From positions 1 to 9,060 of IMG/VR virus record IMGVR_UViG_2663763232_000002: a DNA stretch of 9,060 bases; one strand, written 5' to 3'. Below are positions 1-9,060 of this stretch, one piece after another. The notes beneath the pieces are model-generated. The model had not been told where the DNA came from. It searched no databases and was given only the letters and a program-made list of their open reading frames with translations. Position numbers and translations under genes: made by a program. Numbering within the stretch: the stretch's first letter is position 1; every line of letters begins with the position of its first letter. Source of the stretch: a virus (lineage: Duplodnaviria > Heunggongvirae > Uroviricota > Caudoviricetes).

Positions 1-168
1 TCAGTTGTTACGGGAAGGAATCAGGGTGGCCAGATGTACAGTGGCACGTCTCATGGCGGCTCTTACCCTGCTGGTGCTGTTGCCAGCCCTCATTTCGATG
101 CTGCTCACAGTAGCCTGAACGGTCCGTAGTCGTACCGGGACAACCTCTCTTGCGACATGCGCGAGGGA

Positions 169-402
169 TTAACGCTGGCATGGTTCAATCCTCACGGAAC
201 CGTAGAGCGTATGCCGCTTCACTTCATCGTTCTCTGCCGTCATATAACCACGCTCATCAGGAACGGCTGCGATTACTTCGCCCTTCTCATCGTCAGCAGT
301 GAAGACATGCTTAACTTCAACACCATTGAGATAAACGCTATACCGCTCTTTGCTGAGGTTTATTTTTCTTCCAGGATCATCATCTAAAACGGTTAGTCTC
401 AT
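169..402 (-). CDS. Small hypothetical phage protein (77 aa), function unknown
   Basis: ATG at 402-400 preceded by an AGGGGA Shine-Dalgarno ('AGGGGATAAGA ATG' on the minus strand). Same orientation as the Rha gene upstream. No family recognised from the sequence. Confidence 0.5.
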   Translation of the reverse strand: MRLTVLDDDPGRKINLSKERYSVYLNGVEVKHVFTADDEKGEVIAAVPDERGYMTAENDEVKRHTLYGSVRIEPCQR

Positions 403-490
403 TCTTATCCCCTACTTGGTATATTGATTATCTTATTCGCTTGAAGGGATAACCATTATCAAGCCCACCCGTAGATGGGCTTTGGAATGG

Positions 491-1045
491 TCACTTTGGC
501 AGTCCTGGGATCGATATTTGCGCCTGCTGCTCAAGCCTTTCGATTCTTGCTATGAGTTGCGGTTTTTTGATCCTGCCCCAGCGGTTCAGCAAGCGTCCTG
601 ACATACTGGCAACATCCTTTTCCTTCATGAACTCCAGCATTAACTCGTTGTGCTCTCTTTGGTATGAGTGAGCCATCTCCATCAGCCTGTCACGCATCCA
701 ATTAAATGCTTTGATAAACGCCTCTTTGATGGCGGCAGCTTTTTTGCCGGTAAACGACATGATGATGTACATCGCGCCGTCTTTGGAAATTTCATATTCA
801 ACATACTGATTACCCTTGTGTTCATAGGTAACCCGCGAAAAGTTGCTGGTTAGAAATTCATCCGAACAGTCTAGCTTTTCGATTTTCTGAATGATGTGGT
901 GATGCTGCTTGTCGAAGTAAGCTGCTACCTTGCGGGAGGTTGTGATCACGCGATTACCAGAAACAACCACCATGTCCCGGAAATCGAGATTAGCCAATTG
1001 ATGATTCATAGCGTCTTTACCTTTTAGAAAGTGAGCCTGTCTCAC
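491..1045 (-). CDS. Rha-family phage regulatory protein (antirepressor-like)
   Basis: The N-terminal segment 'VVVSGNRVITTSRKVAAYFDKQHHHIIQKIEKL...YIIMSFTGKKAAAIKEAFIKAF' matches the Phage_pRha signature as I remember it. The ORF-track start at 1045 is a GTG; an in-frame ATG at 1009-1007 with an upstream AAAGG is an alternative start. Confidence 0.7.
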   Translation of the reverse strand: MRQAHFLKGKDAMNHQLANLDFRDMVVVSGNRVITTSRKVAAYFDKQHHHIIQKIEKLDCSDEFLTSNFSRVTYEHKGNQYVEYEISKDGAMYIIMSFTGKKAAAIKEAFIKAFNWMRDRLMEMAHSYQREHNELMLEFMKEKDVASMSGRLLNRWGRIKKPQLIARIERLEQQAQISIPGLPK

Positions 1046-1157
1046 AGAAAAGCCGCCCCGAGATGGTCGCCACCATATACGGCATTTCTCAGGCTCGCTT
1101 ACTGAAAGGCTCGGGTGATGTAATATGCGCGTGAGATGCGCTGTGAAATTCAGATGT

Positions 1158-1181
1158 AAAAAAAGCCCCGCATCGCGAGGC
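1158..1181 (-). terminator. Candidate rho-independent terminator downstream of Rz/Rz1
   Basis: Minus strand reads 5'-GCCTCGC-GAT-GCGGGGC-TTTTTTT-3': a 7-bp GC-rich stem (one G.U pair), 3-nt loop, then a 7-T tract, lying 33 nt past the Rz stop. Confidence 0.45.
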
Positions 1182-1213
1182 TCATTAAATGGACTTTGTG
1201 ATTTGCAAAAGAA

Positions 1214-1681
1214 TTATTTCAGGCATTGCGTCCTGATGTATTCCTGCAGGTAGTTAACCTGCGCGGTTATCTTGTCGATTCCACTTCGGAGACGGTAATA
1301 ATTGAGTTCAGCATCTGCTGTAAGTCTTGGGCTTTCTCCATCGCCCATGCTGCTGGCTCCGGTCGTTGACTTTGCACAGGTGGCGGCGACTTGCAGCCGC
1401 TTACGGCCAGCAATGACATCGCTATGCAGACGCTCAATGGTTTCTTTCGCATCAGCCAGTTCTCCGGTGTATTTGGCATCCAGTGCAGCGACATCACGCT
1501 GGCGGGTCTGCATGTCTTTAATGGTGGCGGTCGCCAGGAGGAGTTTCTCAGTGGCCTTATCGCGCTGGTCTCTGTAAGTGATGGCGTTGTCGCGGTAGTG
1601 GTTCACGAAGAAAGCCAGTGCGCCGATTAACGCCAGCACCAGCAACTGCAGCCAGTAACGCTTAACCAGTGCGCTAATCAT
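1214..1681 (-). CDS. Rz: Spanin, inner-membrane subunit (i-spanin) Rz
   Basis: The 155-aa product has an N-terminal hydrophobic anchor followed by '[11 protein letters not shown]...[19 protein letters not shown]', closely matching lambda Rz. Its ATG overlaps the endolysin stop (ATGA at 1678-1681). Confidence 0.9.
1267..1452 (-). CDS. Rz1: Spanin, outer-membrane lipoprotein subunit (o-spanin) Rz1, embedded in Rz in the +1 frame
   Basis: Internal ATG at 1452 gives a 61-aa product '[33 protein letters not shown]...' with a signal peptide, a lipobox (LAVSG|C) and a proline-rich mature region, as in lambda Rz1. It lies wholly inside Rz. The ORF-track entry 1267..1497 is the same frame with a spurious upstream extension. 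Confidence 0.8.
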
Positions 1682-2127
1682 GACAGGAACAGAGCTCGCT
1701 CTGCCTCCCGCCGACGTGTCAGCCCATTCAGCACCTTCCCACCAGCTTTATTCCAGCGCAGGAACTCATCGGCTGCACCAGCGTAATCTCCGGCGTTGAG
1801 TTTTCGCAGGAGAGTCGATGTCGACAATGACCGCGCACCGAGGTTATACGTGAACGACACCAGGGCATCGAACTGGCCTTGTGTCAGCTTCACCCTGACA
1901 ACTTTCAGCACGTCATTCTCATAACCAACAAGCCCTGTTTTCAGAAGCCTGTCAGCGGTTTGCTGGTCGATAGTCATACCGCGCTTTACTGGCTTTCCGT
2001 CAACCGGATGGGTCCAGCCATAGCCGATGGTCCACGGCGCATCTCCCGTTCCGGGGTCGGGGTAAGCAGTCAGCCGACAACCTTCAAATTTTTTTATCAG
2101 AGCAATTCCGTCAGGACTGGTTTGCAT
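1678..2127 (-). CDS. Endolysin, T4/P22-type lysozyme (GH24 muramidase)
   Basis: Catalytic-region pattern '[22 protein letters not shown]' (Glu, then Asp 8 residues later, then Thr 5 further) and the C-terminal 'FTYNLGA....[19 protein letters not shown]....GL..RR..E' resemble phage 21/P22 lysozymes. There is no N-terminal SAR/TM segment, so it depends on the holin. The ORF-track start at 2154 is TTG; I call the ATG at 2127-2125 with an upstream GGGAG. Confidence 0.85.
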
Positions 2128-2434
2128 CGTCAACTCCCGCCTTTTTTGCTGCAAGTTTTTTAATCAAATTGCCGATCGAATCGGTGCCGATGTATCCAAT
2201 AAAGACGCTGGCTATGTAGGCGAGGTTGCTGCTCAGGCCGATAAAGTCCAGAAGGTCACGAACGAACCAGGCAATCATCGCGCACATCAGCGCATCAATT
2301 AGCGTTTTTGTTACCGCGCCGCCGTTATAGCGACCACGCAGATACGCCATGATAAAAGCCAGCATTGCACCAATACCCTGCTCCTTGGCGGCAAGTAGCG
2401 CAGCAATGAAATCTTGTTTGTATGGCATTTTCAT
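2111..2434 (-). CDS. S: Class I holin, lambda S family, with dual-start motif (holin/antiholin)
   Basis: The 107-aa product '[39 protein letters not shown]...' is near-identical in pattern to lambda S, including the Met1-Lys2-Met3 dual start. A GGAGG Shine-Dalgarno lies 8 nt upstream. The ORF-track extension to 2512 starts at a TTG and is not supported. Confidence 0.9.
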
Positions 2435-2458
2435 AGGCCTCACCTCCGATTTTTCGGA
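2435..2458 (-). promoter_or_regulatory. S translation-initiation region: stem-loop overlapping the Shine-Dalgarno (sdi-like)
   Basis: Minus strand reads 5'-TCCGA-AAAA-TCGGA-GGTGAGGCCT-ATG: a 5-bp stem whose 3' arm overlaps the GGAGG Shine-Dalgarno, directly before the Met-Lys-Met dual start. This is analogous to the lambda S sdi structure that sets the S107:S105 ratio. Confidence 0.4.
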
Positions 2459-2540
2459 TGGCGCTGTGTGTGTATGAAAAGGATCAGGCTTCACTGGCTG
2501 GATTTTCAACAAAGCACGTAGTGATTGATTCCCGTGAGCC

Positions 2541-2567
2541 TGAAATAAAAAACCAGCTCAAGGCTGG
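2541..2567 (-). terminator. Candidate intrinsic terminator between the tRNA pair and S
   Basis: Minus strand reads 5'-CCAGC-CTTGA-GCTGG-TTTTTTATTT-3': a 5-bp stem (4 G:C), 5-nt loop and 6-T tract. The stem is short, so strength is uncertain. Confidence 0.4.
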
Positions 2568-2623
2568 AATGTTAGGGTGTGGCAATGTCAGCTCTGCGGC
2601 TGAAGATACCCTGGCTGGGTTTT

Positions 2624-2699
2624 TGGTGCCGGTTAACGGATTTGAACCGCTACCTATTCACTTACAAGGCGACCGCTCTACCATTGGAGCTAAACCAGC
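2624..2699 (-). tRNA. tRNA-Thr (anticodon UGU), phage-encoded
   Basis: Hand-folded 76-nt cloverleaf on the minus strand: acceptor GCTGGTT/AACCGGC (one G.U), U8, D-arm GCTC-CAATGGTA-GAGC with G18G19, anticodon loop CU-UGU-AA, T-arm AGCGG-TTCAAAT-CCGTT, discriminator A, encoded CCA. Deviations: C where A14 is expected and a G:A at 27:43. Confidence 0.55.
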
Positions 2700-2704
2700 A
2701 TGTT

Positions 2705-2779
2705 TGGCGGGACAGCGTGGACTCGAACCACGATAAGAAGGTTAACAGCCTTCCGTAATGACCTTTATACGACTGACCC
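2705..2779 (-). tRNA. tRNA-Asn (anticodon GUU), phage-encoded
   Basis: Hand-folded 75-nt cloverleaf on the minus strand: anticodon arm GAAGG-CUGUUAA-CCTTC (same loop as E. coli tRNA-Asn), T-arm CGTGG-TTCGAGT-CCACG, 4-nt variable loop, discriminator G, encoded CCA. The acceptor stem GGGTCAG/CTGTCCC has a U4:U69 mismatch and the D-stem has a 13:22 mismatch. It sits 5 nt upstream of the tRNA-Thr. Confidence 0.6.
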
Positions 2780-2783
2780 AAAT

Positions 2784-2825
2784 AAAAAAAGCCACCGTTG
2801 CAACTTAAGAGTCACTAACGGCAGC
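2784..2825 (-). terminator. Candidate tR'-like leader terminator between Q and the tRNAs
   Basis: Minus strand reads 5'-GCTGCCGTT-(17-nt loop AGTGACTCTTAAGTTGC)-AACGGTGGC-TTTTTTTATTT: a 9-bp stem (7 Watson-Crick plus 2 G.U) followed by a 7-T tract. The T tract ends 4 nt before the tRNA-Asn 5' end. Confidence 0.45.
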
Positions 2826-2829
2826 TTAT

Positions 2830-2866
2830 GCGAATAGTGTTGCTCATTTGCTCAATGATGTCAACA
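2830..2866 (-). promoter_or_regulatory. Candidate late promoter pR' / Q-utilisation region
   Basis: A perfect -35 hexamer TTGACA on the minus strand at 2864-2859, seven nt after the Q stop. No convincing -10 at 16-19 bp spacing (AACACT, ACACTA and CACTAT are the options). The position, directly downstream of Q and upstream of a leader terminator, matches lambdoid pR'. Confidence 0.3.
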
Positions 2867-2870
2867 CGTT

Positions 2871-3359
2871 CTATGCTACATGTTTAATTTTCTCTACACG
2901 TTTCCGGTTTTTAAACGCACTATCCAGAACTGGGTAAATCATAAACAACGAAGCATTGAGGATTTCGTCAACTTCCCGGCGACAGGTTGCGAGCGATGGT
3001 TTTTGAATACGCCCGCCGCCCCGGCATAACATCTTGCGAGGTCTTGCGACACGATGATAGTAAGATGCAATGGCATGCTTGGAAGATCCATGAGCGTAGT
3101 AGCTGAGGAGGATGCCAAAGGCTTTCTTGTCAATGCACATGACGGAATCGACGACCTGAGAAATCAACATTCCATCATCATCATTACACATTGGCCTTGT
3201 CATAACTCTTCCCGGCTCTACGCTCTCCATGAACTTCGCTATTACGCTGCTCATGCGCTTTTCCAGACGACCTGAATAAACCCATGCGCCCCACAGTTCA
3301 AGCCAGCCATTCAGCCAATCGTGCTGTTCTTTGGTGAGGTTTAGTTCTCTTATGCTCAT
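2871..3359 (-). CDS. Q: Late-gene antiterminator Q (Q family of E. coli lambdoid prophages, not lambda-Q type by sequence)
   Basis: The 162-aa product 'WLELWGAWVYSGRLEKR...MTRPMCNDDDGML...SYYAHGSS...RRE' matches, from memory, the Q antiterminators of E. coli lambdoid prophages. Position is canonical, between ninH and the lysis cassette. The ATG overlaps the ninH stop (ATGA, 3356-3359). Confidence 0.75.
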   Translation of the reverse strand: MSIRELNLTKEQHDWLNGWLELWGAWVYSGRLEKRMSSVIAKFMESVEPGRVMTRPMCNDDDGMLISQVVDSVMCIDKKAFGILLSYYAHGSSKHAIASYYHRVARPRKMLCRGGGRIQKPSLATCRREVDEILNASLFMIYPVLDSAFKNRKRVEKIKHVA

Positions 3360-3544
3360 CGTCTTCCCCTCTTGCCCTGTTTGACCATCAGGACGCCGTT
3401 AACTATTACGTGACGCTCGCCTTTGCTGTCTCGGTTGTACTTGAGCACTGTTCCTCTTGCGCAGGAAAGCATCCTTGCCACTTCGGTCTGATTGCCTCGT
3501 GTCTGGATAAGAAGCTCTGGTATCGTTTGAATTGTGGCGTTCAT
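3356..3544 (-). CDS. ninH: NinH (small HTH DNA-binding protein)
   Basis: '..TIPELLIQTRGNQTEVARMLSCARGTVLKY..D.KGE.HVIVNGVLMV' aligns with lambda NinH ('KTIPDMLVEAYGNQTEVARRLKCSRGTVRKY...HAIVNDVLMV'). ATGA overlap with rusA at 3541-3544. Confidence 0.85.
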   Translation of the reverse strand: MNATIQTIPELLIQTRGNQTEVARMLSCARGTVLKYNRDSKGERHVIVNGVLMVKQGKRGRR

Positions 3545-3903
3545 ACGTTCTCCAGTTCGGTGATTTTTATTCCAAGCCGTCCGCCTGGTACTTTCACGCC
3601 ACGAATTACGCGAATGTCATCGAATTGCTCGTCGTCTTCCGCAAATCCTGCGTGGATAAGGGAATCGAGTAAACCCTTCAGGATGTTATCGAGGTCGCGG
3701 CGGCGGGAGTCTGGAACGTCTGCGATGACTTTGATGCGGAGTCTTGATTTGGTGAAAATGTCTAACTTGAGTTGGCGGATGATTTGCTGAACGTCTTTTC
3801 GGTATTTCTGGCCTTTATCGCTGATGTAGTATTGGCTTCCCCGTCTTCGCCAGTAGGTGTTCACCGACGGCTGGTAAGGAAGCACAAACTGATATTCGTT
3901 CAT
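3541..3903 (-). CDS. rusA: Holliday-junction resolvase RusA
   Basis: The 120-aa product 'YQFVLPYQPSVNTYWRRRG...IADVPDSRRRDLDNILKGLLDSLIHAGF..DD.Q..D.RV......GGRL.I.ITE' shows the RusA family motifs (catalytic Asp cluster RRRDLDN). ATGA overlap with the upstream gene. Confidence 0.9.
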   Translation of the reverse strand: MNEYQFVLPYQPSVNTYWRRRGSQYYISDKGQKYRKDVQQIIRQLKLDIFTKSRLRIKVIADVPDSRRRDLDNILKGLLDSLIHAGFAEDDEQFDDIRVIRGVKVPGGRLGIKITELENV

Positions 3904-4190
3904 GGCTTAATCTTCCCCTCCTTCAGCAGGATCGCCTGCGTCCTGATCACGCCTTCGAGGTGATAAAGTCTGGCGTCTTTGTTGTCGAGGTTATGGGTGC
4001 GTCGGTCGATCTCCGCGTGGCAGTCACTACAAGCCCATGTGCCGATCAGGTCGGCAGGCTTCATTCCCGTTCCGCAAATTCCAGCCATCCGGTAATGCGC
4101 CAGAACTGTAGTTTCAGGATTACCATTGCATATGCCGTAAATACGTACCTGGCATTCTCTGCCGCGCGCTTCTTTGCGTAGGTTAGCCAT
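3900..4190 (-). CDS. ybcO: YbcO-like DUF1364 protein (putative Zn-binding nuclease)
   Basis: 'MANLRKEARGRECQVRIYGICNGNPETTVLAHYRMAGICGTG.KP.DL....ACSDCHAEIDRRTH' closely matches DLP12 YbcO as I recall it, and sits directly upstream of rusA as in DLP12. Confidence 0.8.
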   Translation of the reverse strand: MANLRKEARGRECQVRIYGICNGNPETTVLAHYRMAGICGTGMKPADLIGTWACSDCHAEIDRRTHNLDNKDARLYHLEGVIRTQAILLKEGKIKP

Positions 4191-4459
4191 TATGGTTCAC
4201 TCCAGTAATTCTCAATTGCAGCAGCCATTCTCTGCATCCACTCAGCCAGCTTTAACGCGGCTTCTCTTTCAGAACCACATTTAGGGAAATCCTTCATTTC
4301 CATGCTGGCCTTATATGTTCTGAATGCCAGGTCTCCGGTAATAACCAGCTCCTGATCAAGCACCGAGCGTTTATTCCGGTGTTGAACGTAATAGACAGAT
4401 TCAGTCCGCATTTCTTCTCTGTCTTTTTTGAAGGAAATAAGCTCAGAGAAATCATTCAT
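4190..4459 (-). CDS. Hypothetical nin-region protein (89 aa)
   Basis: Clean ATG at 4459-4457; an 8-nt start/stop overlap with ninF upstream and a 1-nt overlap with the ybcO-like gene downstream show it is embedded in the translationally coupled operon. No recognisable family. It occupies the slot that ninG/rap holds in lambda. Confidence 0.6.
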   Translation of the reverse strand: MNDFSELISFKKDREEMRTESVYYVQHRNKRSVLDQELVITGDLAFRTYKASMEMKDFPKCGSEREAALKLAEWMQRMAAAIENYWSEP

Positions 4460-4622
4460 CGTCTTCTTCCTCGTACATTGAGCTATTCGGATCGCTCATC
4501 AGTTCTGCGCAGCAATCGGAGCACACGTGAACTTCCAGCACATACAGCTTCTGACCGCAGTTAGCGCACGTTAAAGCCCGCTCGACGCTTTCTTGTTCGT
4601 AACTTCGATTTGGGTCAATCAC
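4452..4622 (-). CDS. ninF: NinF (56 aa), absent from the ORF track because it is under 60 aa
   Basis: Manual translation of the minus strand gives '(V/M)[55 protein letters not shown]', matching lambda NinF ('...[45 protein letters not shown].'). GTG start at 4622-4620 with a GAGGAAAA Shine-Dalgarno 8 nt upstream; GTGA overlap with the ninE stop. Confidence 0.7.
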
Positions 4623-4801
4623 CTTGTTTTCCTCGCACGTTCTCTAAGCCACCGGATATCCCACAGGTGAGCCGTGTAGTTGAAGGTTTTTACGTCAGAT
4701 TCTTTTGGGATTGGCTTGCGTTTATTTCTGGAGCGTTTCGTTGGAAGGTATTTGCAGTTTTCGCAGATGATGTCGGTGATACTTCGTCGCTGTCGTCTCA
4801 T
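4619..4801 (-). CDS. ninE: NinE (60 aa)
   Basis: Internal ATG at 4801-4799 with an AGGAGG Shine-Dalgarno 5 nt upstream gives '[60 protein letters not shown]', matching lambda-type NinE from memory. The ATG overlaps the methyltransferase stop (ATGA, 4798-4801). The ORF-track 90-aa version is a spurious 5' extension. Confidence 0.75.
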
Positions 4802-5343
4802 GCCGCCCTCCTGACGCCCTGCCCGATCGCCATCAATGCCACTTTGGATACGGTAGTAAACATCCGTCGAGGACTGATGAACGGTCGCCAAATCAGCAGC
4901 ATGGAGCCTTTGCTGTTTCCCTTTTTCTCCAGCCCTGTCGATGGTTCGATAAAATTAATCCGTCCATCAGTGATAATACGAACTTCGTCAACACTCTCCA
5001 GAGCCTTGCTGAACCATCCGACTGACATATCCTCTGGCACAAGCATCACTACCGTCTGTCGCTGTTGTATGCACTGCTCAGCGGCTTTTTCCACCCACGG
5101 CCTGATATTGCTGTACGGTGGGTTATTCCAGATTGCACCGTGGCTTATCCACTCAGAATTGAGCGCGTTGTCAGCCTCAGTTAGCCAGTGAGCGCACAGA
5201 GCATTTTTGTCGCTCGCTGCCGAATCCAGCCAGAATCCAAACTCAATATCCAGTGCATCAAAAAGCCAGAGCGGCGTTTGCCAGCAGTCCTTGTCGTGTG
5301 CTGGCGTATTTGATTTGATAGTCATGCAGCCCGATCTCCCCAT
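4798..5343 (-). CDS. Phage DNA N6-adenine methyltransferase (Dam-like, orphan)
   Basis: '[28 protein letters not shown].......L...W....[17 protein letters not shown].......Q.VVMLVP' carries the NPPY catalytic motif IV and matches the phage Dam (PF05869-type) pattern. No cognate restriction gene is adjacent. An alternative ATG at 5325 overlaps the HNH stop as ATGA and may be the true start. Confidence 0.85.
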
Positions 5344-5924
5344 CTCGCTTTCATTTTTTCATTTGCAAATCGCCAGAATCTTCCTTTGTGATATGAGCTT
5401 TCGCCATTACAGCAACGACTAATTGACGAACTATCAAATCCTTCTCTGACAGCATCCATAGCTGCTTCATAATAAACCTCCTCCCCAGTTTTCATGTCAG
5501 TAGAAATAACAGCTTTACTGGCAGGATGGTCACCACTAAATTTACCTAGCGATATAGGTATTCTTCCATTTTGTTTATATCCGTGTTTTGAGTTTTCAGA
5601 ATGTGATACCCATTCAAGGTTATCAGCCCTATTGTCATCTCTTCGCCCATTTTTGTGATTAACTACCAAGCCATCACAGAACCCTGTACAGAATGCTTTC
5701 GCAACTATCCTGTGGGCGCTGTATTTCTTACCGTATACCTTTATTTGAAGATATCCTGTCGACTTGCACTTGAATGGTTTTACACTAGTGCCATTAATTA
5801 TTTTCTTATATGGCCTCTGTCTGGTTGATGTTACTGTAACTTCCCTCGTAATAGACCTAAAATTTCCTTTATTGCTAACCTGATAAAATGGAATCCCTTC
5901 GATATCTACCCAAACCTCAATCAT
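5322..5924 (-). CDS. Free-standing HNH homing endonuclease (NUMOD4 + HNH_3-type)
   Basis: N-terminal NUMOD4-like 'EVWVDIEGIPFYQVSNKGNFRSI'; HNH core 'H-KNG-RRD-DN-RAD-NL-EWVSHSE-N-SK-H'; C-terminal 'F.S...AA...G.....IS.CC.G...S..G..WRF', typical of phage HNH endonuclease DNA-binding tails. GGAGG Shine-Dalgarno before the ATG at 5924. The gene body is markedly AT-rich. Confidence 0.85.
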   Translation of the reverse strand: MIEVWVDIEGIPFYQVSNKGNFRSITREVTVTSTRQRPYKKIINGTSVKPFKCKSTGYLQIKVYGKKYSAHRIVAKAFCTGFCDGLVVNHKNGRRDDNRADNLEWVSHSENSKHGYKQNGRIPISLGKFSGDHPASKAVISTDMKTGEEVYYEAAMDAVREGFDSSSISRCCNGESSYHKGRFWRFANEKMKARWGDRAA

Positions 5925-6333
5925 AATTCCTCCATTCGCTAAGATGAATTGAGTTCATGGCACAATATGCTTCTATGTAGTCCATTATTTCGGATATTTT
6001 TTTTACAGATAGAGTCGCCGTACTCTCTCTGATGTTTATTAGCTCACCTTCTAACCCTGATATAATCTCAGGGTGCTGGTTGGTTGCAATCTGCCAACCA
6101 GAAACGAATAACCCCTTCCAAAACTCAATATTTCTTGCTTTTCCATGATATGTAGCCTTCTTACTTATTTCAGATAGCATCGCGTGAAGGCGTGCATTTT
6201 GCCGAATGCTGCGGTTGCGTTCCTGAATGGTTACTACGATTGGTTTGGTTGGGTCTGGAAGGATTTGCTGTACTGCGTGAATAGCGTTTTGCTGATGTGC
6301 TGGAGATCGAATTTCAAAGGTTAGTTTTTTCAT
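5917..6333 (-). CDS. ninB: NinB (Orf-family recombination mediator), mosaic allele
   Basis: The first ~41 residues, 'MKKLTFEIRSPAHQQNAIHAVQQILPDPTKPIVVTIQERNRS', match lambda NinB as I recall it; the remainder is homologous but divergent. GAGGGAAG Shine-Dalgarno before the ATG at 6333. Confidence 0.85.
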   Translation of the reverse strand: MKKLTFEIRSPAHQQNAIHAVQQILPDPTKPIVVTIQERNRSIRQNARLHAMLSEISKKATYHGKARNIEFWKGLFVSGWQIATNQHPEIISGLEGELINIRESTATLSVKKISEIMDYIEAYCAMNSIHLSEWRNYD

Positions 6334-6526
6334 GACTTCCCTCTCTAACAGATTTCAGGTTATTCCACTCCGTTACCGCACTGCGATAATTCGCGGCCGC
6401 CACAGCAGCGTGGTTAGCGCAGTAGATTTCGCACCCGCTCTCCATGTCAAATATTGTCGGTGATTTTCCGCATTTACATTTTTTGGCACGCGGTGCGTCT
6501 GAACACATTCCGTTAACGGTGTCCAT
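6314..6526 (-). CDS. Small Cys-rich hypothetical protein (70 aa, zinc-ribbon-like)
   Basis: Strong Shine-Dalgarno (GAGGGGGA) before the ATG at 6526. Cysteines are arranged C-x8-CxC...C-x3-C. It is the first gene after the terminator, in the position of ren in lambda. No family recognised. Confidence 0.5.
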   Translation of the reverse strand: MDTVNGMCSDAPRAKKCKCGKSPTIFDMESGCEIYCANHAAVAAANYRSAVTEWNNLKSVREGSHEKTNL

Positions 6527-6550
6527 CAGGATCCCCCTCGTTCTTAATCC

Positions 6551-6581
6551 AATAAAAAAGGGCTACTGTGTAAATAGCCCC
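6551..6581 (-). terminator. Intrinsic terminator downstream of the primase-helicase (tR2-like position)
   Basis: Minus strand reads 5'-GGGCTA-TTTACACAG-TAGCCC-TTTTTTATT-3': a 6-bp stem (7 if the flanking G:C is counted), 9-nt loop and 6-T tract, between the replication gene stop (6612) and the first nin-region gene. Confidence 0.6.
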
Positions 6582-6611
6582 TGTTATTAGCTCAGTGATG
6601 TAGATGGTCAT

Positions 6612-8492
6612 TTAATACTCCGTCACGTTTTCCTGTCGCCACGCCTCGTCATATTCCGATTTCGGCATATTGGCGATGTAGCTATAAGGCGATCCTGATT
6701 CAAGTTGCAGGAACTGGTGCGATTGCTCGTCAAGGAACAAAGGGACGCCACCTTCCCAACCTTCGCCGTTACGTTGCTTTTCAAGCATCAAAACAGATGC
6801 CGGAGATGCCAGTAGCTGTTCGTCCTTCTCTGACATCTTTTCACCACTCTGAACTCTCTGTAACGCTCTCTCGCGAGCCTTGTTACGCCAGATGATGAAA
6901 AGGTTGTCTGTCAGGTCTGTTATCGCTCCAGAGCCTTTTACGTCCATTTTCCCGGTTGGTTTTTCTTCGCTGTCACCTTTTCGCGAGTGAGTAACGAGAA
7001 TGACGTGGGAGTTTGTTTTGTTTTTGAAATCGCAAATCGAGTCAACAAACGCCTTCTGCCCGTTATAGTCATCGTCGCCTATGCCACATTTCATTAGGCT
7101 GTCGATGATGAATAACTGGATCCCGTATCGGCGGCGAGCGTAGTCGAATATTTCGATCAGCCTGTCGGCTTTCGCCGTTCCGGTCAGACCAAACACCCAA
7201 AGTCTTTCGTCATAAAATTTAAATGCAGAGTCAATTTCCAGCACTGGCGGCATCTTGCAGCACGTCGCCTGACGGGTAAGGCGCTTAAGGAGAATACCAG
7301 GCTTCAGCTCAAGTGACGCGATGCACGTCTTCACACCCTGACGCATTGCCTCAAGTGCCATATGCCCGACAACCTCCGTTTTTCCGTGACCGTTCACACC
7401 ATTGACCAGCGTCAACTCGGCCTCACGGAACTGGAATTTATCTGCCAGAGATTCCCACGGTGGATTAAACAGATACTGCTGCTTGCCGTAGAAAGCGTTG
7501 ATAGTGTCCTGGTAAAACTCTCGCGCGCTGTAGAGTTCTTCAGGATCGAAGTAGGATGCCGTGCCGATGTACTGCCAGATTTCATCCTCGGTAACACCGT
7601 TCATCAGGCATTCGTTGATGTCTTTGTACGGCAGAGTAACAAGACGGCAACGATGTTCACCGAGTCGGCTTGCGATTTCCCTTGCGGCTTCACGACCAAC
7701 ATCATCAACGTCCATCGAGATGAATATTTCCTCAAACCTGTCGAGGTTGTGATACTCAAACTCAATCCACTGTTGCTTAGCGCCTTTCCCGCCACCAAAC
7801 GGCACGGATAACGCCGAGATGCCGTATTGCGCATAGCTCATACAATCAATTTCGCCTTCGCAAAGTACAACCGCCCTCACGCCAGCGTCCAGAGCCTGCC
7901 ATCCGAACAGACAAGGTTCGCAATCACCTTCTGCCATAATGACTTTCTTCCCGTCCGGGCGCTCAGTGCTGATTCGCTTGACCTGCAACAACTCACCATC
8001 GCGTTTGTACGGAATCACCAGAGCATCCAGTTCTCGCTCTCCATTCCACACCTTGCCGCTGACAACCTCGTAGCGCTTTACGACTTCTGGCGATATGCCA
8101 CGCGATTGCAGGTACTCAAGATGGGATTCTGTTCTGGTAACGTAGCGGGCGATTTTCTTGCGATCAGGTCTGGAGAATTTCTTCTCACGTTTGGCATCGA
8201 AATGGTGATCGTCATCCTTGATACCGAGAAATGCTTTCGCTTCCTGCATAGCCTGATGCAGGTTAATTCCTCGACATGCCATCCACAAATCAAGCATGTC
8301 ACCGCCGTCCCCCTCAGCGAAATCAGCCCATTTTTTCTTGCCGCTAAGGTTGACCTTAAGGCTGTTTCCCTTGTCACCGTTGACGTTACCGGCAACCCAC
8401 TCATGCCCCTCTTTCTTGCCGTTTGGCAACAGGTGCGGAGCCACCCTGTCAACCTGCGCCCAAAGCAGGTCGCTAAGTTCACTTGGCGTCAT
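6612..8492 (-). CDS. Bifunctional DNA primase-helicase, T7 gp4-like (degenerate zinc-binding-like domain, TOPRIM primase, DnaB-family helicase)
   Basis: TOPRIM motifs 'VVLCEGEIDCMS' and 'ISMDVDDVGREAA', and 'LPYKDINECLMNG' (T7 gp4 has 'LPCKDANECHLNG'). Helicase Walker A 'NGVNGHGKT', Walker B 'LFIIDSL', and 'VKGSGAITDLTDNLFIIWRN' (T7 has '[20 protein letters not shown]'). GAGGGA Shine-Dalgarno before the ATG at 8492. Confidence 0.9.
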   Translation of the reverse strand: MTPSELSDLLWAQVDRVAPHLLPNGKKEGHEWVAGNVNGDKGNSLKVNLSGKKKWADFAEGDGGDMLDLWMACRGINLHQAMQEAKAFLGIKDDDHHFDAKREKKFSRPDRKKIARYVTRTESHLEYLQSRGISPEVVKRYEVVSGKVWNGERELDALVIPYKRDGELLQVKRISTERPDGKKVIMAEGDCEPCLFGWQALDAGVRAVVLCEGEIDCMSYAQYGISALSVPFGGGKGAKQQWIEFEYHNLDRFEEIFISMDVDDVGREAAREIASRLGEHRCRLVTLPYKDINECLMNGVTEDEIWQYIGTASYFDPEELYSAREFYQDTINAFYGKQQYLFNPPWESLADKFQFREAELTLVNGVNGHGKTEVVGHMALEAMRQGVKTCIASLELKPGILLKRLTRQATCCKMPPVLEIDSAFKFYDERLWVFGLTGTAKADRLIEIFDYARRRYGIQLFIIDSLMKCGIGDDDYNGQKAFVDSICDFKNKTNSHVILVTHSRKGDSEEKPTGKMDVKGSGAITDLTDNLFIIWRNKARERALQRVQSGEKMSEKDEQLLASPASVLMLEKQRNGEGWEGGVPLFLDEQSHQFLQLESGSPYSYIANMPKSEYDEAWRQENVTEY

Positions 8493-8542
8493 GATTCCCT
8501 CAGATTGAGATTTTTAAACCAGAAATCGACAAACGAAATACT

Positions 8543-8558
8543 TAACCAGCCGTGGTTA
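8543..8558. promoter_or_regulatory. Inverted repeat TAACCA-GCCG-TGGTTA in the intergenic region upstream of the primase-helicase
   Basis: Six-bp arms that are exact reverse complements, separated by 4 bp, about 50 nt upstream of the primase-helicase start. Flanked by three AACCAG direct repeats (8517, 8544, 8560). Candidate operator or hairpin; no functional evidence. Confidence 0.25.
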
Positions 8559-8599
8559 TAACCAGCGACCAGTAGCGATTTGATTTTTGATTTCATGGT

Positions 8600-8974
8600 T
8601 CACCTGTCGAAAAACACGTAGCCAGTTTTCGATACGGTGATTGCGGATGATGGTTTGGATTGTGGTTGAATAGTTTCTGGCTTCTCGTCGTTCCAGCGTT
8701 GACCGTTCAGGTAGCTCGATGGTAACAACCTGTCGAATCCGAACTGCTTACCATTCCTGCATGCGATGTCTTCTGCCAGCATCGTGGCAAACTCGCTTGC
8801 CGTACCCCTGGTAGTTTTACGCCATTCCCTGAACTGTGTTCTGAATGCCGAAGCTGCGTTTTTCTTCCCGGCTTTCCGCATGCCTGCACACCAGAATATT
8901 TCCTCGAATGCCTTGTCGGTTTCTTCGTGACGGTCAGGAGTTTTTTCACACTCTGTTCGGACATGTTCGAACAT
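8600..8974 (-). CDS. Hypothetical replication-module protein (initiator-like?), probably 5'-truncated by the window edge
   Basis: The 124-aa ORF from ATG 8974 has no Shine-Dalgarno, and the same frame stays open upstream to the window end at 9060, so the real start is likely outside the window. Located immediately upstream of the primase-helicase. No family recognised. Confidence 0.5.
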   Translation of the reverse strand: MFEHVRTECEKTPDRHEETDKAFEEIFWCAGMRKAGKKNAASAFRTQFREWRKTTRGTASEFATMLAEDIACRNGKQFGFDRLLPSSYLNGQRWNDEKPETIQPQSKPSSAITVSKTGYVFFDR

Positions 8975-9021
8975 AATGTTTTTAGGTTCATTGACTGGTT
9001 CAAAAGAGTGATAGGTTCTGG

Positions 9022-9060
9022 GGGCAGCTCCTGCCCCACCCCCTAGGGCAGCTCCTGCCC
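9022..9060. repeat. Tandem palindromic iteron-like repeats (candidate replication origin or operator array), truncated by the window end
   Basis: The 15-bp unit GGGCAGCTCCTGCCC (arms GGGCAG/CTGCCC, 3-bp centre) occurs at 9022-9036 and 9046-9060 with a 24-bp period. The window ends inside the array. Confidence 0.5.

Follow-up and report, generated by a model that had tools for sequence, protein, structure and literature searches.

Most work on free-standing homing endonucleases has concerned virulent T-even phages, for which the principle of their spread is textbook knowledge; the SegF/gene 56, SegG/gene 32 and MobE/nrdB systems home without an intron, accompanied by co-conversion or localized marker exclusion. 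Two further systems bear on the present case: I-HmuI, an HNH nicking homing endonuclease of Bacillus phage SPO1, is encoded in a group I intron, and in Aeromonas phage Aeh1 MobE splits nrdA into pieces encoding subunits that reassemble. Here, we describe a cassette of related character in a 9,060-nt stretch of lambdoid phage DNA (positions 1 to 9,060 of IMG/VR virus record IMGVR_UViG_2663763232_000002, Caudoviricetes; hereafter the window). The cassette carries a divergent 3′ part of the recombination gene ninB (orf), here termed type 2, together with a putative homing endonuclease gene, and the C-terminus of the endonuclease is now encoded by the final nine resident ninB codons. On the comparative evidence given below, the recombination of this cassette into ninB and the fusion of the relic 3′ end to the endonuclease are essentially established as the history of the locus, which is composed of the following parts.

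5353–6207, minus strand: AT-rich cassette of 855 bp, consisting of a replacement ninB 3′ part and the endonuclease body (delimited by composition and blastn)
6208–6333, minus strand: resident lambda-type ninB 5′ third, codons 1–42, up to and including the conserved RNRS motif (no mismatch to lambda or mEp043)
5917–6207, minus strand: type-2 ninB 3′ two-thirds, codons 43–138 plus stop TGA at 5919–5917 (alignment with lambda and type-2 relatives)
5353–5924, minus strand: NUMOD4/HNH endonuclease body, codons 1–191 (Pfam and match to I-HmuI)
5322–5352, minus strand: remnant 3′ end of the resident ninB, encoding KARWGDRAA in nine codons (5351–5325), with stop TGA at 5324–5322 (29 of 31 nt identical to lambda)
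4798–5325, minus strand: phage Dam methyltransferase gene (Pfam Dam, 7e-65)

Comparison with the described systems reveals both shared and distinct features. As in the T-even phages, the endonuclease lies beside its presumed target, the carrier has a divergent adjacent segment, presence and absence are polymorphic, and flanking sequence moves along. Unlike those systems, in which the phages are virulent and the Seg enzymes belong to the GIY-YIG family, the host here is a temperate lambdoid phage, the presumed target is ninB, the open reading frame (ORF) runs into a relic of that target, and homing is the predicted mode of spread. The HNH core and C-terminal DNA-binding part are homologous to those of I-HmuI; in contrast to the latter, the gene in the window is free-standing in the 3′ end of a protein gene with no intron detected, and its product has an N-terminal NUMOD4 domain and a nine-residue host-gene tail. 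The gene for Aeh1 MobE, an HNH endonuclease, likewise lies inside a host coding sequence, and there too the host gene is still functional, although in the window a nine-codon 3′ relic is appended to the endonuclease and NinB is merely shortened. By analogy, the overall pattern would be the one known from free-standing endonucleases in T-even phages and from I-HmuI-type marker exclusion.

The mosaic anatomy of the locus is apparent from both composition and alignment. The cassette has a G+C content of 38.8%, against 49.8% in the rest of the window, and the lowest value among 6495 other 855-nt intervals is 44.9%; the lambda-type ninB segment that it replaces measures 284 bp and has 51.1% G+C in mEp043. 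An earlier, sequence-only reading of this DNA had deduced a low-G+C block from the lines starting at 5521, 5581 and 5941, compared with that at 7141, and a recount returned exactly its figures (21, 24, 19 and 31 G/C, respectively). Breakpoints were mapped with blastn against lambda, mEp043 c-1 and IME10. Positions 6345–6208, comprising a 12-nt leader and ninB codons 1–42, are 100% identical to all three phages, and between 6208 and 5352 there is no blastn match to any of them. From 5352, 29 of 31 nt are identical to the lambda ninB 3′ end, and the sequence from this point through dam is 98–99% identical to mEp043 and IME10. Megablast had placed the right boundary at 5332, and the more sensitive blastn moved it to 5352. 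Both breakpoints, 6208/6207 on the left and 5353/5352 on the right, are sharp and lie within ninB.

Alleles without the endonuclease occur in close relatives, revealing a presence/absence polymorphism at the ninB-dam region. In mEp043 c-1 the order primase-ninB-dam-ninE-ninF is the same, with an intact 146-amino-acid (aa) lambda-type ninB and no cassette. IME10, also without the cassette, matches the window at 98.5% identity upstream and 98.3% downstream, and ECP1, ev017, 1H12 and others give the same two-piece match, with an intact lambda-type ninB followed by the same dam. Together with the breakpoints, these relatives support the proposal of the sequence-only reading that an endonuclease invaded ninB, brought along a divergent 3′ part and left the original 3′ end as an in-frame tail. 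The abrupt block end that it placed at about 5350 coincides with the return of identity at 5352, and the endonuclease-free ninB-dam junctions that it suggested seeking allowed the breakpoints to be fixed at 6208/6207 and 5353/5352. Only its placement of the insertion at the ninB-dam junction has to be corrected: the block lies inside ninB, and the junction itself is untouched.

The endonuclease ORF (5924–5322, 200 aa) matches Pfam NUMOD4 (1e-13, 51.3 bits, cut-off 23.4) and HNH_3 (2e-11, 43.5 bits, cut-off 24.8), with a sub-threshold match to the I-HmuI NUMOD-like domain. I-HmuI (PDB 1U3E) is its sole solved relative (E=3.7e-14, query residues 55–186). Among 26 homologues H90 is nearly invariant and N98, N102, N111 and H114 are invariant, and I-HmuI has the same residues at the positions of H90, N98, N102 and N111; the protein is a putative nuclease on these grounds. 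Its ATG (5924–5922) overlaps the ninB stop (ATGATTGA), and a Shine-Dalgarno sequence, GGAGG (5933–5929), lies within the final ninB codons. The two genes are separate, overlapping ORFs in different frames, and the endonuclease gene is not inside an intron or intein. Indeed, an Rfam scan of the window returned two tRNAs only, with no intron or other RNA family, indicating a free-standing gene.

Where the native endonuclease should end can be judged from I-HmuI, which stops four residues past the position matching WRF186; because the alignment reaches residue 186, the native protein would be expected to end soon after this motif. The ORF instead continues through KARWGDRAA, which corresponds to residues 138–146 of lambda NinB, just as the sequence-only reading had stated, and its TGA (5324–5322) overlaps the methyltransferase ATG (5325–5323) as ATGA. 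The dam gene of the window is 98–99% identical to that behind the intact ninB of mEp043 and IME10, and its start overlaps the relic ninB stop; the native ninB/dam junction is thus preserved. The start of dam is annotated differently among records, at ATG 5343 in some (a 22-nt overlap with the upstream ORF) and at the ATGA of 5325 in others, and the Pfam Dam match starts at residue 10 of the longer ORF.

A reading in which KARWGDRAA is native to the endonuclease family and resembles NinB by coincidence has next to no probability and is already refuted. It draws on the fact that many homologues also end in ...AA, commonly encoded by GCNGCATGA and overlapping the ATG of the next gene. However, 20 of 25 aligned homologues, compared as the sequence-only reading had suggested, lack the tail and end about 5–11 residues past WRF. 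Moreover, the nucleotides of the tail are nearly those of the lambda ninB 3′ end, continuous with the native ninB/dam junction, and they differ between downstream contexts at 3–5 of 31 positions while the cassette is nearly constant; because they vary with the flanking context and not with the cassette, the tail belongs to the recipient. The longer tails of homologues also vary by context and resemble local NinB C-termini: that of L007 reads SDASRLEIEWATRWGKS, similar to a Klebsiella NinB ending in ...SKQAMEWAARWGK, and those of L008 and L011 end in ...AVMRWAQQHNRSSAV and ...EIKQWIGYSGDKNRSAA, respectively. Among the 120 best lambda-NinB homologues, none has the exact L008 (...NRSSAV) or L011 (...NRSAA) tail, and beyond the overall motif ...EW..R.G..AA the same set yields no more than a sequence close to the L007 tail; having no exact parental NinB, the L008 and L011 tails are NinB-like rather than proven relics. 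In the window, the resident stop and its ATGA overlap plausibly preserve translational coupling to the downstream gene, and in-frame read-through into the last resident codons suggests a way for an insertion to avoid polar effects downstream.

The chimeric ninB (6333–5917) gives a Pfam NinB match of 1e-40 (138.8 bits, residues 3–130). Its product ends in ...SEWRNYD and does not have the C-terminal helix of lambda Orf, which includes W137 and contributes to DNA binding (PMC4118853). The possibility that type-2 NinB exists only alongside the endonuclease was considered and rejected: a broad type-2-like family without it includes HK639, phiEt88 and Aaphi23, at 35–38% identity, as well as many metagenomic proteins. 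These endonuclease-free relatives carry C-terminal extensions of their own, for example ...ERWAA, and the endonuclease-linked NinBs are a truncated subclade of that family. For the ninB segment attached to the endonuclease, comparison with phage SEN22 gives a ratio of nonsynonymous to synonymous divergence (dN/dS) of 0.03; for the endonuclease, compared with the 78%-identical SEN22 copy, dN is 0.145, and no ratio is given because dS is saturated. Both genes are thus under purifying selection.

The cassette is found full-length, at 98.6% identity or more, in 77 of 5426 complete Escherichia coli genomes, and some 60 phage records, the majority of them from Stx2a-converting phages, contain it too; a 1.5-kb ninB-HNH-dam query finds at least a partial match in about 1,900 genomes. 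At least three different ninB 5′ parts precede the cassette, and the cassette and tail are followed by at least four different genes: dam, ninD (L019), ninE (L020) or ninC (L037). Base-by-base comparison with L019 and L020 showed that homology to the window stops exactly at the relic ninB stop. Compared with phi419/Stx2 phages, the window differs at two positions within the 855-bp cassette, at 19 within the 126-nt ninB 5′ part and at seven within the ~350-nt dam 5′ part (Fisher p = 6e-16 and 0.003, respectively), so that one and the same cassette has spread across differing flanks. In SEN22 a 78%-identical variant is joined to a lambda-type ninB 5′ part at the same nucleotide; mismatches to the window number 4 of 138 upstream and reach 22% from 6207 on, and dS rises from 0.07 upstream of the joint to 2.6 just downstream. 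P0246 (loci L110–L112) carries the window-type cassette on an unrelated ninB 5′ end, its protein being 29% identical to that of the window and then 99%. Damaged copies exist as well. In E. coli P0004 and P0007 the endonuclease is frameshifted past about residue 147; in L043 it is cut to residues 47–200 (interrupted) and lies about 1.3 kb from a ninB fragment; and the ninB beside the intact endonuclease of L037 appears frameshifted.

The endonuclease and the type-2 segment are linked. In the phage collection the type-2 ninB 3′ part is present in 63 records at 99% identity or more and in two at 80–90%, the next ninB relatives reaching at most 44%, and the endonuclease is present in 63 records at 95% or more and in three at 60–80%. 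That the divergent ninB part travels with the endonuclease, as the sequence-only reading held, is therefore borne out, and the matched counts, together with the sharp breakpoints, form the pattern of co-conversion as seen by comparison rather than in a cross.

Association with ninB extends across the clade. Contexts were looked up for homologues at 48–77% identity (n=12) from Enterobacteriaceae, Pantoea, Klebsiella, Aeromonas, Achromobacter, Pseudomonas and metagenomes. Nine have a clear ninB directly 5′ of the endonuclease, with unrelated downstream genes, and two have a weak NinB-like gene there (Klebsiella L012 and JGI L024); Pseudomonas L014 has an unrelated 112-aa gene, and L026 has no called gene. 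An IMG/VR survey covered 80 loci, 41 with an endonuclease at 38–100% identity and 39 at 30–44%. A ninB or NinB-like gene precedes the endonuclease in 36 of the 41, with the genes overlapping or at most 12 nt apart in 33 of them and separated by 61, 114 and about 1,330 nt in the other three; no such gene precedes the endonuclease in any of the 39. A Pseudomonas-like group combines a type-1-like NinB (...VRWTQKDNWGGRY) with an endonuclease tail reading ...PEQWE(Q)AA, which places the endonuclease at the same relative point, the start of the NinB C-terminal helix, across NinB types.

Five of the 41 loci are exceptions, four of them behind a DUF1367 gene and one other, and a strictly ninB-bound clade was accordingly rejected. 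In the four loci (L044, L046, L047 and L051; endonuclease 1495–2085, 63–68% identity) the DUF1367 gene is intact and encodes 149 aa, and the endonucleases nevertheless have ...ERMAA or ...EKAAA as their C-termini, as if the gene had relocated to another site in the nin region. In L015–L017, L022–L023 and L026, which come from Aeromonas, Achromobacter and a metagenomic contig, the gene after the endonuclease encodes a RecA-dependent nuclease (Pfam RecA_dep_nuc, phage P1 Ref family), and ninB-HNH-Ref is a recurring trio in Aeromonas and Achromobacter loci.

Such close association could also mean that the HNH protein is a working partner of NinB/Orf, the two genes forming a recombination module in which breaks are processed by NinB-assisted recombinases and being kept for that function. 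The conserved synteny, the start/stop overlap, the ribosome-binding site inside ninB and the strong purifying selection on both genes would all suit this idea, as would the DUF968 Orf-HNH fusions of Gram-positive phages, single polypeptides in which a zinc-finger HNH motif forms a C-terminal extension (Curtis et al., 2014; PMC4118853). Like these fusions, the window links the Orf/NinB family with an HNH nuclease motif; unlike them, it has two ORFs, and its HNH is of the NUMOD4/HNH_3 homing type. We nevertheless regard a partnership as improbable, given that near-isogenic phages do without the endonuclease, that close homologues sit behind a DUF1367 gene, that the copies in P0004 and P0007 are frameshifted, and that the adjoining NinB has lost the very helix that aids DNA binding in lambda Orf.

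A more serious competitor, though still an unlikely one, is ordinary lambdoid mosaicism, in which the block would be a nin-region module moved by homologous or illegitimate recombination and the endonuclease a passenger, or beneficial in some other way, but not self-driving. Several observations weigh in its favor or against endonuclease-driven homing. Even where no endonuclease is present, the nin region is notorious for mosaicism, and the genes downstream of the cassette (dam, ninC, ninD, ninE) vary freely. The left edge falls at the best-conserved ninB motif, RNRS, where ordinary homologous exchange would resolve too; this edge may equally mark the sole stretch of nucleotide homology between the ninB types. 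The founding right joint, ATG|AAA, shows no homologous crossover and thus calls for an illegitimate or microhomology join. With 77 carriers among 5426 E. coli genomes the cassette is rare, unlike what efficient drive would produce, and this rarity, along with the frameshifted and interrupted copies, suits both the gain-decay cycle that such elements undergo and a neutral passenger. Finally, the four close homologues behind a DUF1367 gene make the association with ninB less than absolute.

Mosaicism fits less well with other features of the locus. Both boundaries are intragenic rather than at gene junctions, the endonuclease and type-2 segment counts are equal in the phage collection, and the association with ninB persists across genera, among unrelated flanks and down to ~38% identity. 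Moreover, the cassette varies far less than the sequence on either side of it, and the protein comes from a homing-endonuclease family.

We therefore infer, with good support but short of demonstration, endonuclease-driven homing and a target inside ninB. It is probable that the endonuclease drives its own spread by cutting endonuclease-free ninB, with repair copying both the gene and the adjacent divergent ninB segment. The proposed course of events begins with a free-standing homing-endonuclease cassette recombining into a lambda-type ninB. This cassette would have brought the type-2 ninB 3′ two-thirds, with its own stop and a ribosome-binding site for the next gene, and an I-HmuI-like NUMOD4/HNH gene that lacks its own stop at this site. 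Translation of the endonuclease would then continue in frame over the last nine resident ninB codons to the resident stop, keeping the ATGA coupling to dam. Upon co-infection, or when a phage meets a prophage, the endonuclease would nick or cut an endonuclease-free ninB, and repair from the carrier would copy the endonuclease gene with the adjacent divergent, presumably cleavage-resistant ninB segment (co-conversion). The left crossover would fall in the conserved ninB 5′ third and the right one in the ninB tail or the downstream gene. Spread of this kind would presumably be driven by double-strand breaks. Two candidate targets can be named, namely the conserved insertion point at ninB codons ~128–138 and the RNRS/QN motif at codons 39–47, where the left edge of the cassette recurs.

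A second endonuclease is present in loci L110–L112. In L111 the arrangement spans 1912–2620 (compare 6336–6208 of the window); the endonuclease is a 195-aa protein with HNH_3 and AP2 domains, encoded directly 5′ of ninB. Its ORF opens with the first 32 codons of a Stx-phage-type resident ninB, fused in frame, and this leader matches, at 100% identity, the start of ninB in O121 and other E. coli genomes. After the ORF comes a new, unrelated ninB 5′ end, which meets the type-2 cassette at CGCAACCGCAGC (RNRS). Free-standing relatives of the HNH-AP2 body (at most 51% identical) start without a ninB leader, and the whole arrangement occurs in eight complete E. coli genomes. As this fusion mirrors the arrangement in the window, it strengthens the reading that relic gene ends on endonucleases mark invasions of ninB. 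A related fusion is known from phage epsilon34, in which gene 31 joins the N-terminus of eaE in frame to a putative HNH homing endonuclease (PMC2629481). There, as in the window, a lambdoid (P22-like) phage has the end of a resident gene fused in frame to an invading HNH; the epsilon34 locus differs in lying in the early-left ea region and in having an N-terminal relic, and is closer to the second endonuclease of L110–L112. More tentatively, unrelated homing endonucleases might repeatedly settle in ninB and spread as half-gene cassettes, each bringing a new, cleavage-immune portion of ninB, turning the displaced end into a leader or tail and keeping the coupling. The HNH-AP2 cassette supplies the ninB 5′ end and the NUMOD4-HNH cassette the 3′ end, and the shared RNRS motif could be their common cleavage target.

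The remainder of the window has the standard layout of a lambdoid delayed-early-to-lysis segment, with all genes on the minus strand in the order primase/helicase, 70-aa ORF, ninB, endonuclease ORF, dam, ninE and ninF, followed by the YbcO nuclease, RusA, NinH, Q, two tRNAs, holin, lysozyme, spanins and a Rha-type protein. Its other features include the following.

8600–8974, minus strand: 124-aa ORF upstream of the primase gene, no Pfam match
8492–6612, minus strand: primase/helicase gene
6314–6526, minus strand: cysteine-rich 70-aa ORF between primase and ninB, no Pfam match
3900–4190, minus strand: YbcO putative nuclease gene
2624–2779, minus strand: tRNA-Thr(TGT) and tRNA-Asn(GTT), between Q and the holin gene

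The region of the 70-aa ORF is common to the window and IME10 but not to Stx2 phages. A terminator-like hairpin (6582–6558, minus strand) lies directly 3′ of the primase gene; scans of 5200–6650 for promoters and terminators gave no excess over shuffled sequences. Placement of tRNAs between Q and the holin gene is common in Stx-type and lambdoid phages. At the window edge, a partial ORF (8–181, minus strand) has an HNH-like cysteine/histidine pattern and probably encodes a terminase-associated HNH protein.

Databases already annotate the endonuclease; in SEN22, for instance, it is labelled "HNH homing endonuclease". A literature search on ninB and the nin region in combination with HNH or homing endonucleases returned no description of the ninB-bound lineage, the chimeric tail or the co-converted half gene; the Orf-HNH fusions mentioned in the study of the Orf family (PMC4118853) are unrelated. 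The cassette is a clear example of how such genes spread rather than something fundamentally new. Its setting is what distinguishes it: the endonuclease resides in temperate lambdoid phages, among them Stx2a-converting phages of O157, O121 and O111 strains, and within a recombination gene of the phage that is the best genetic model. If active, it would make intron-less homing and co-conversion easy to test in lambda, and would offer a concrete mechanism for one class of the within-gene mosaic joints of lambdoid genomes.

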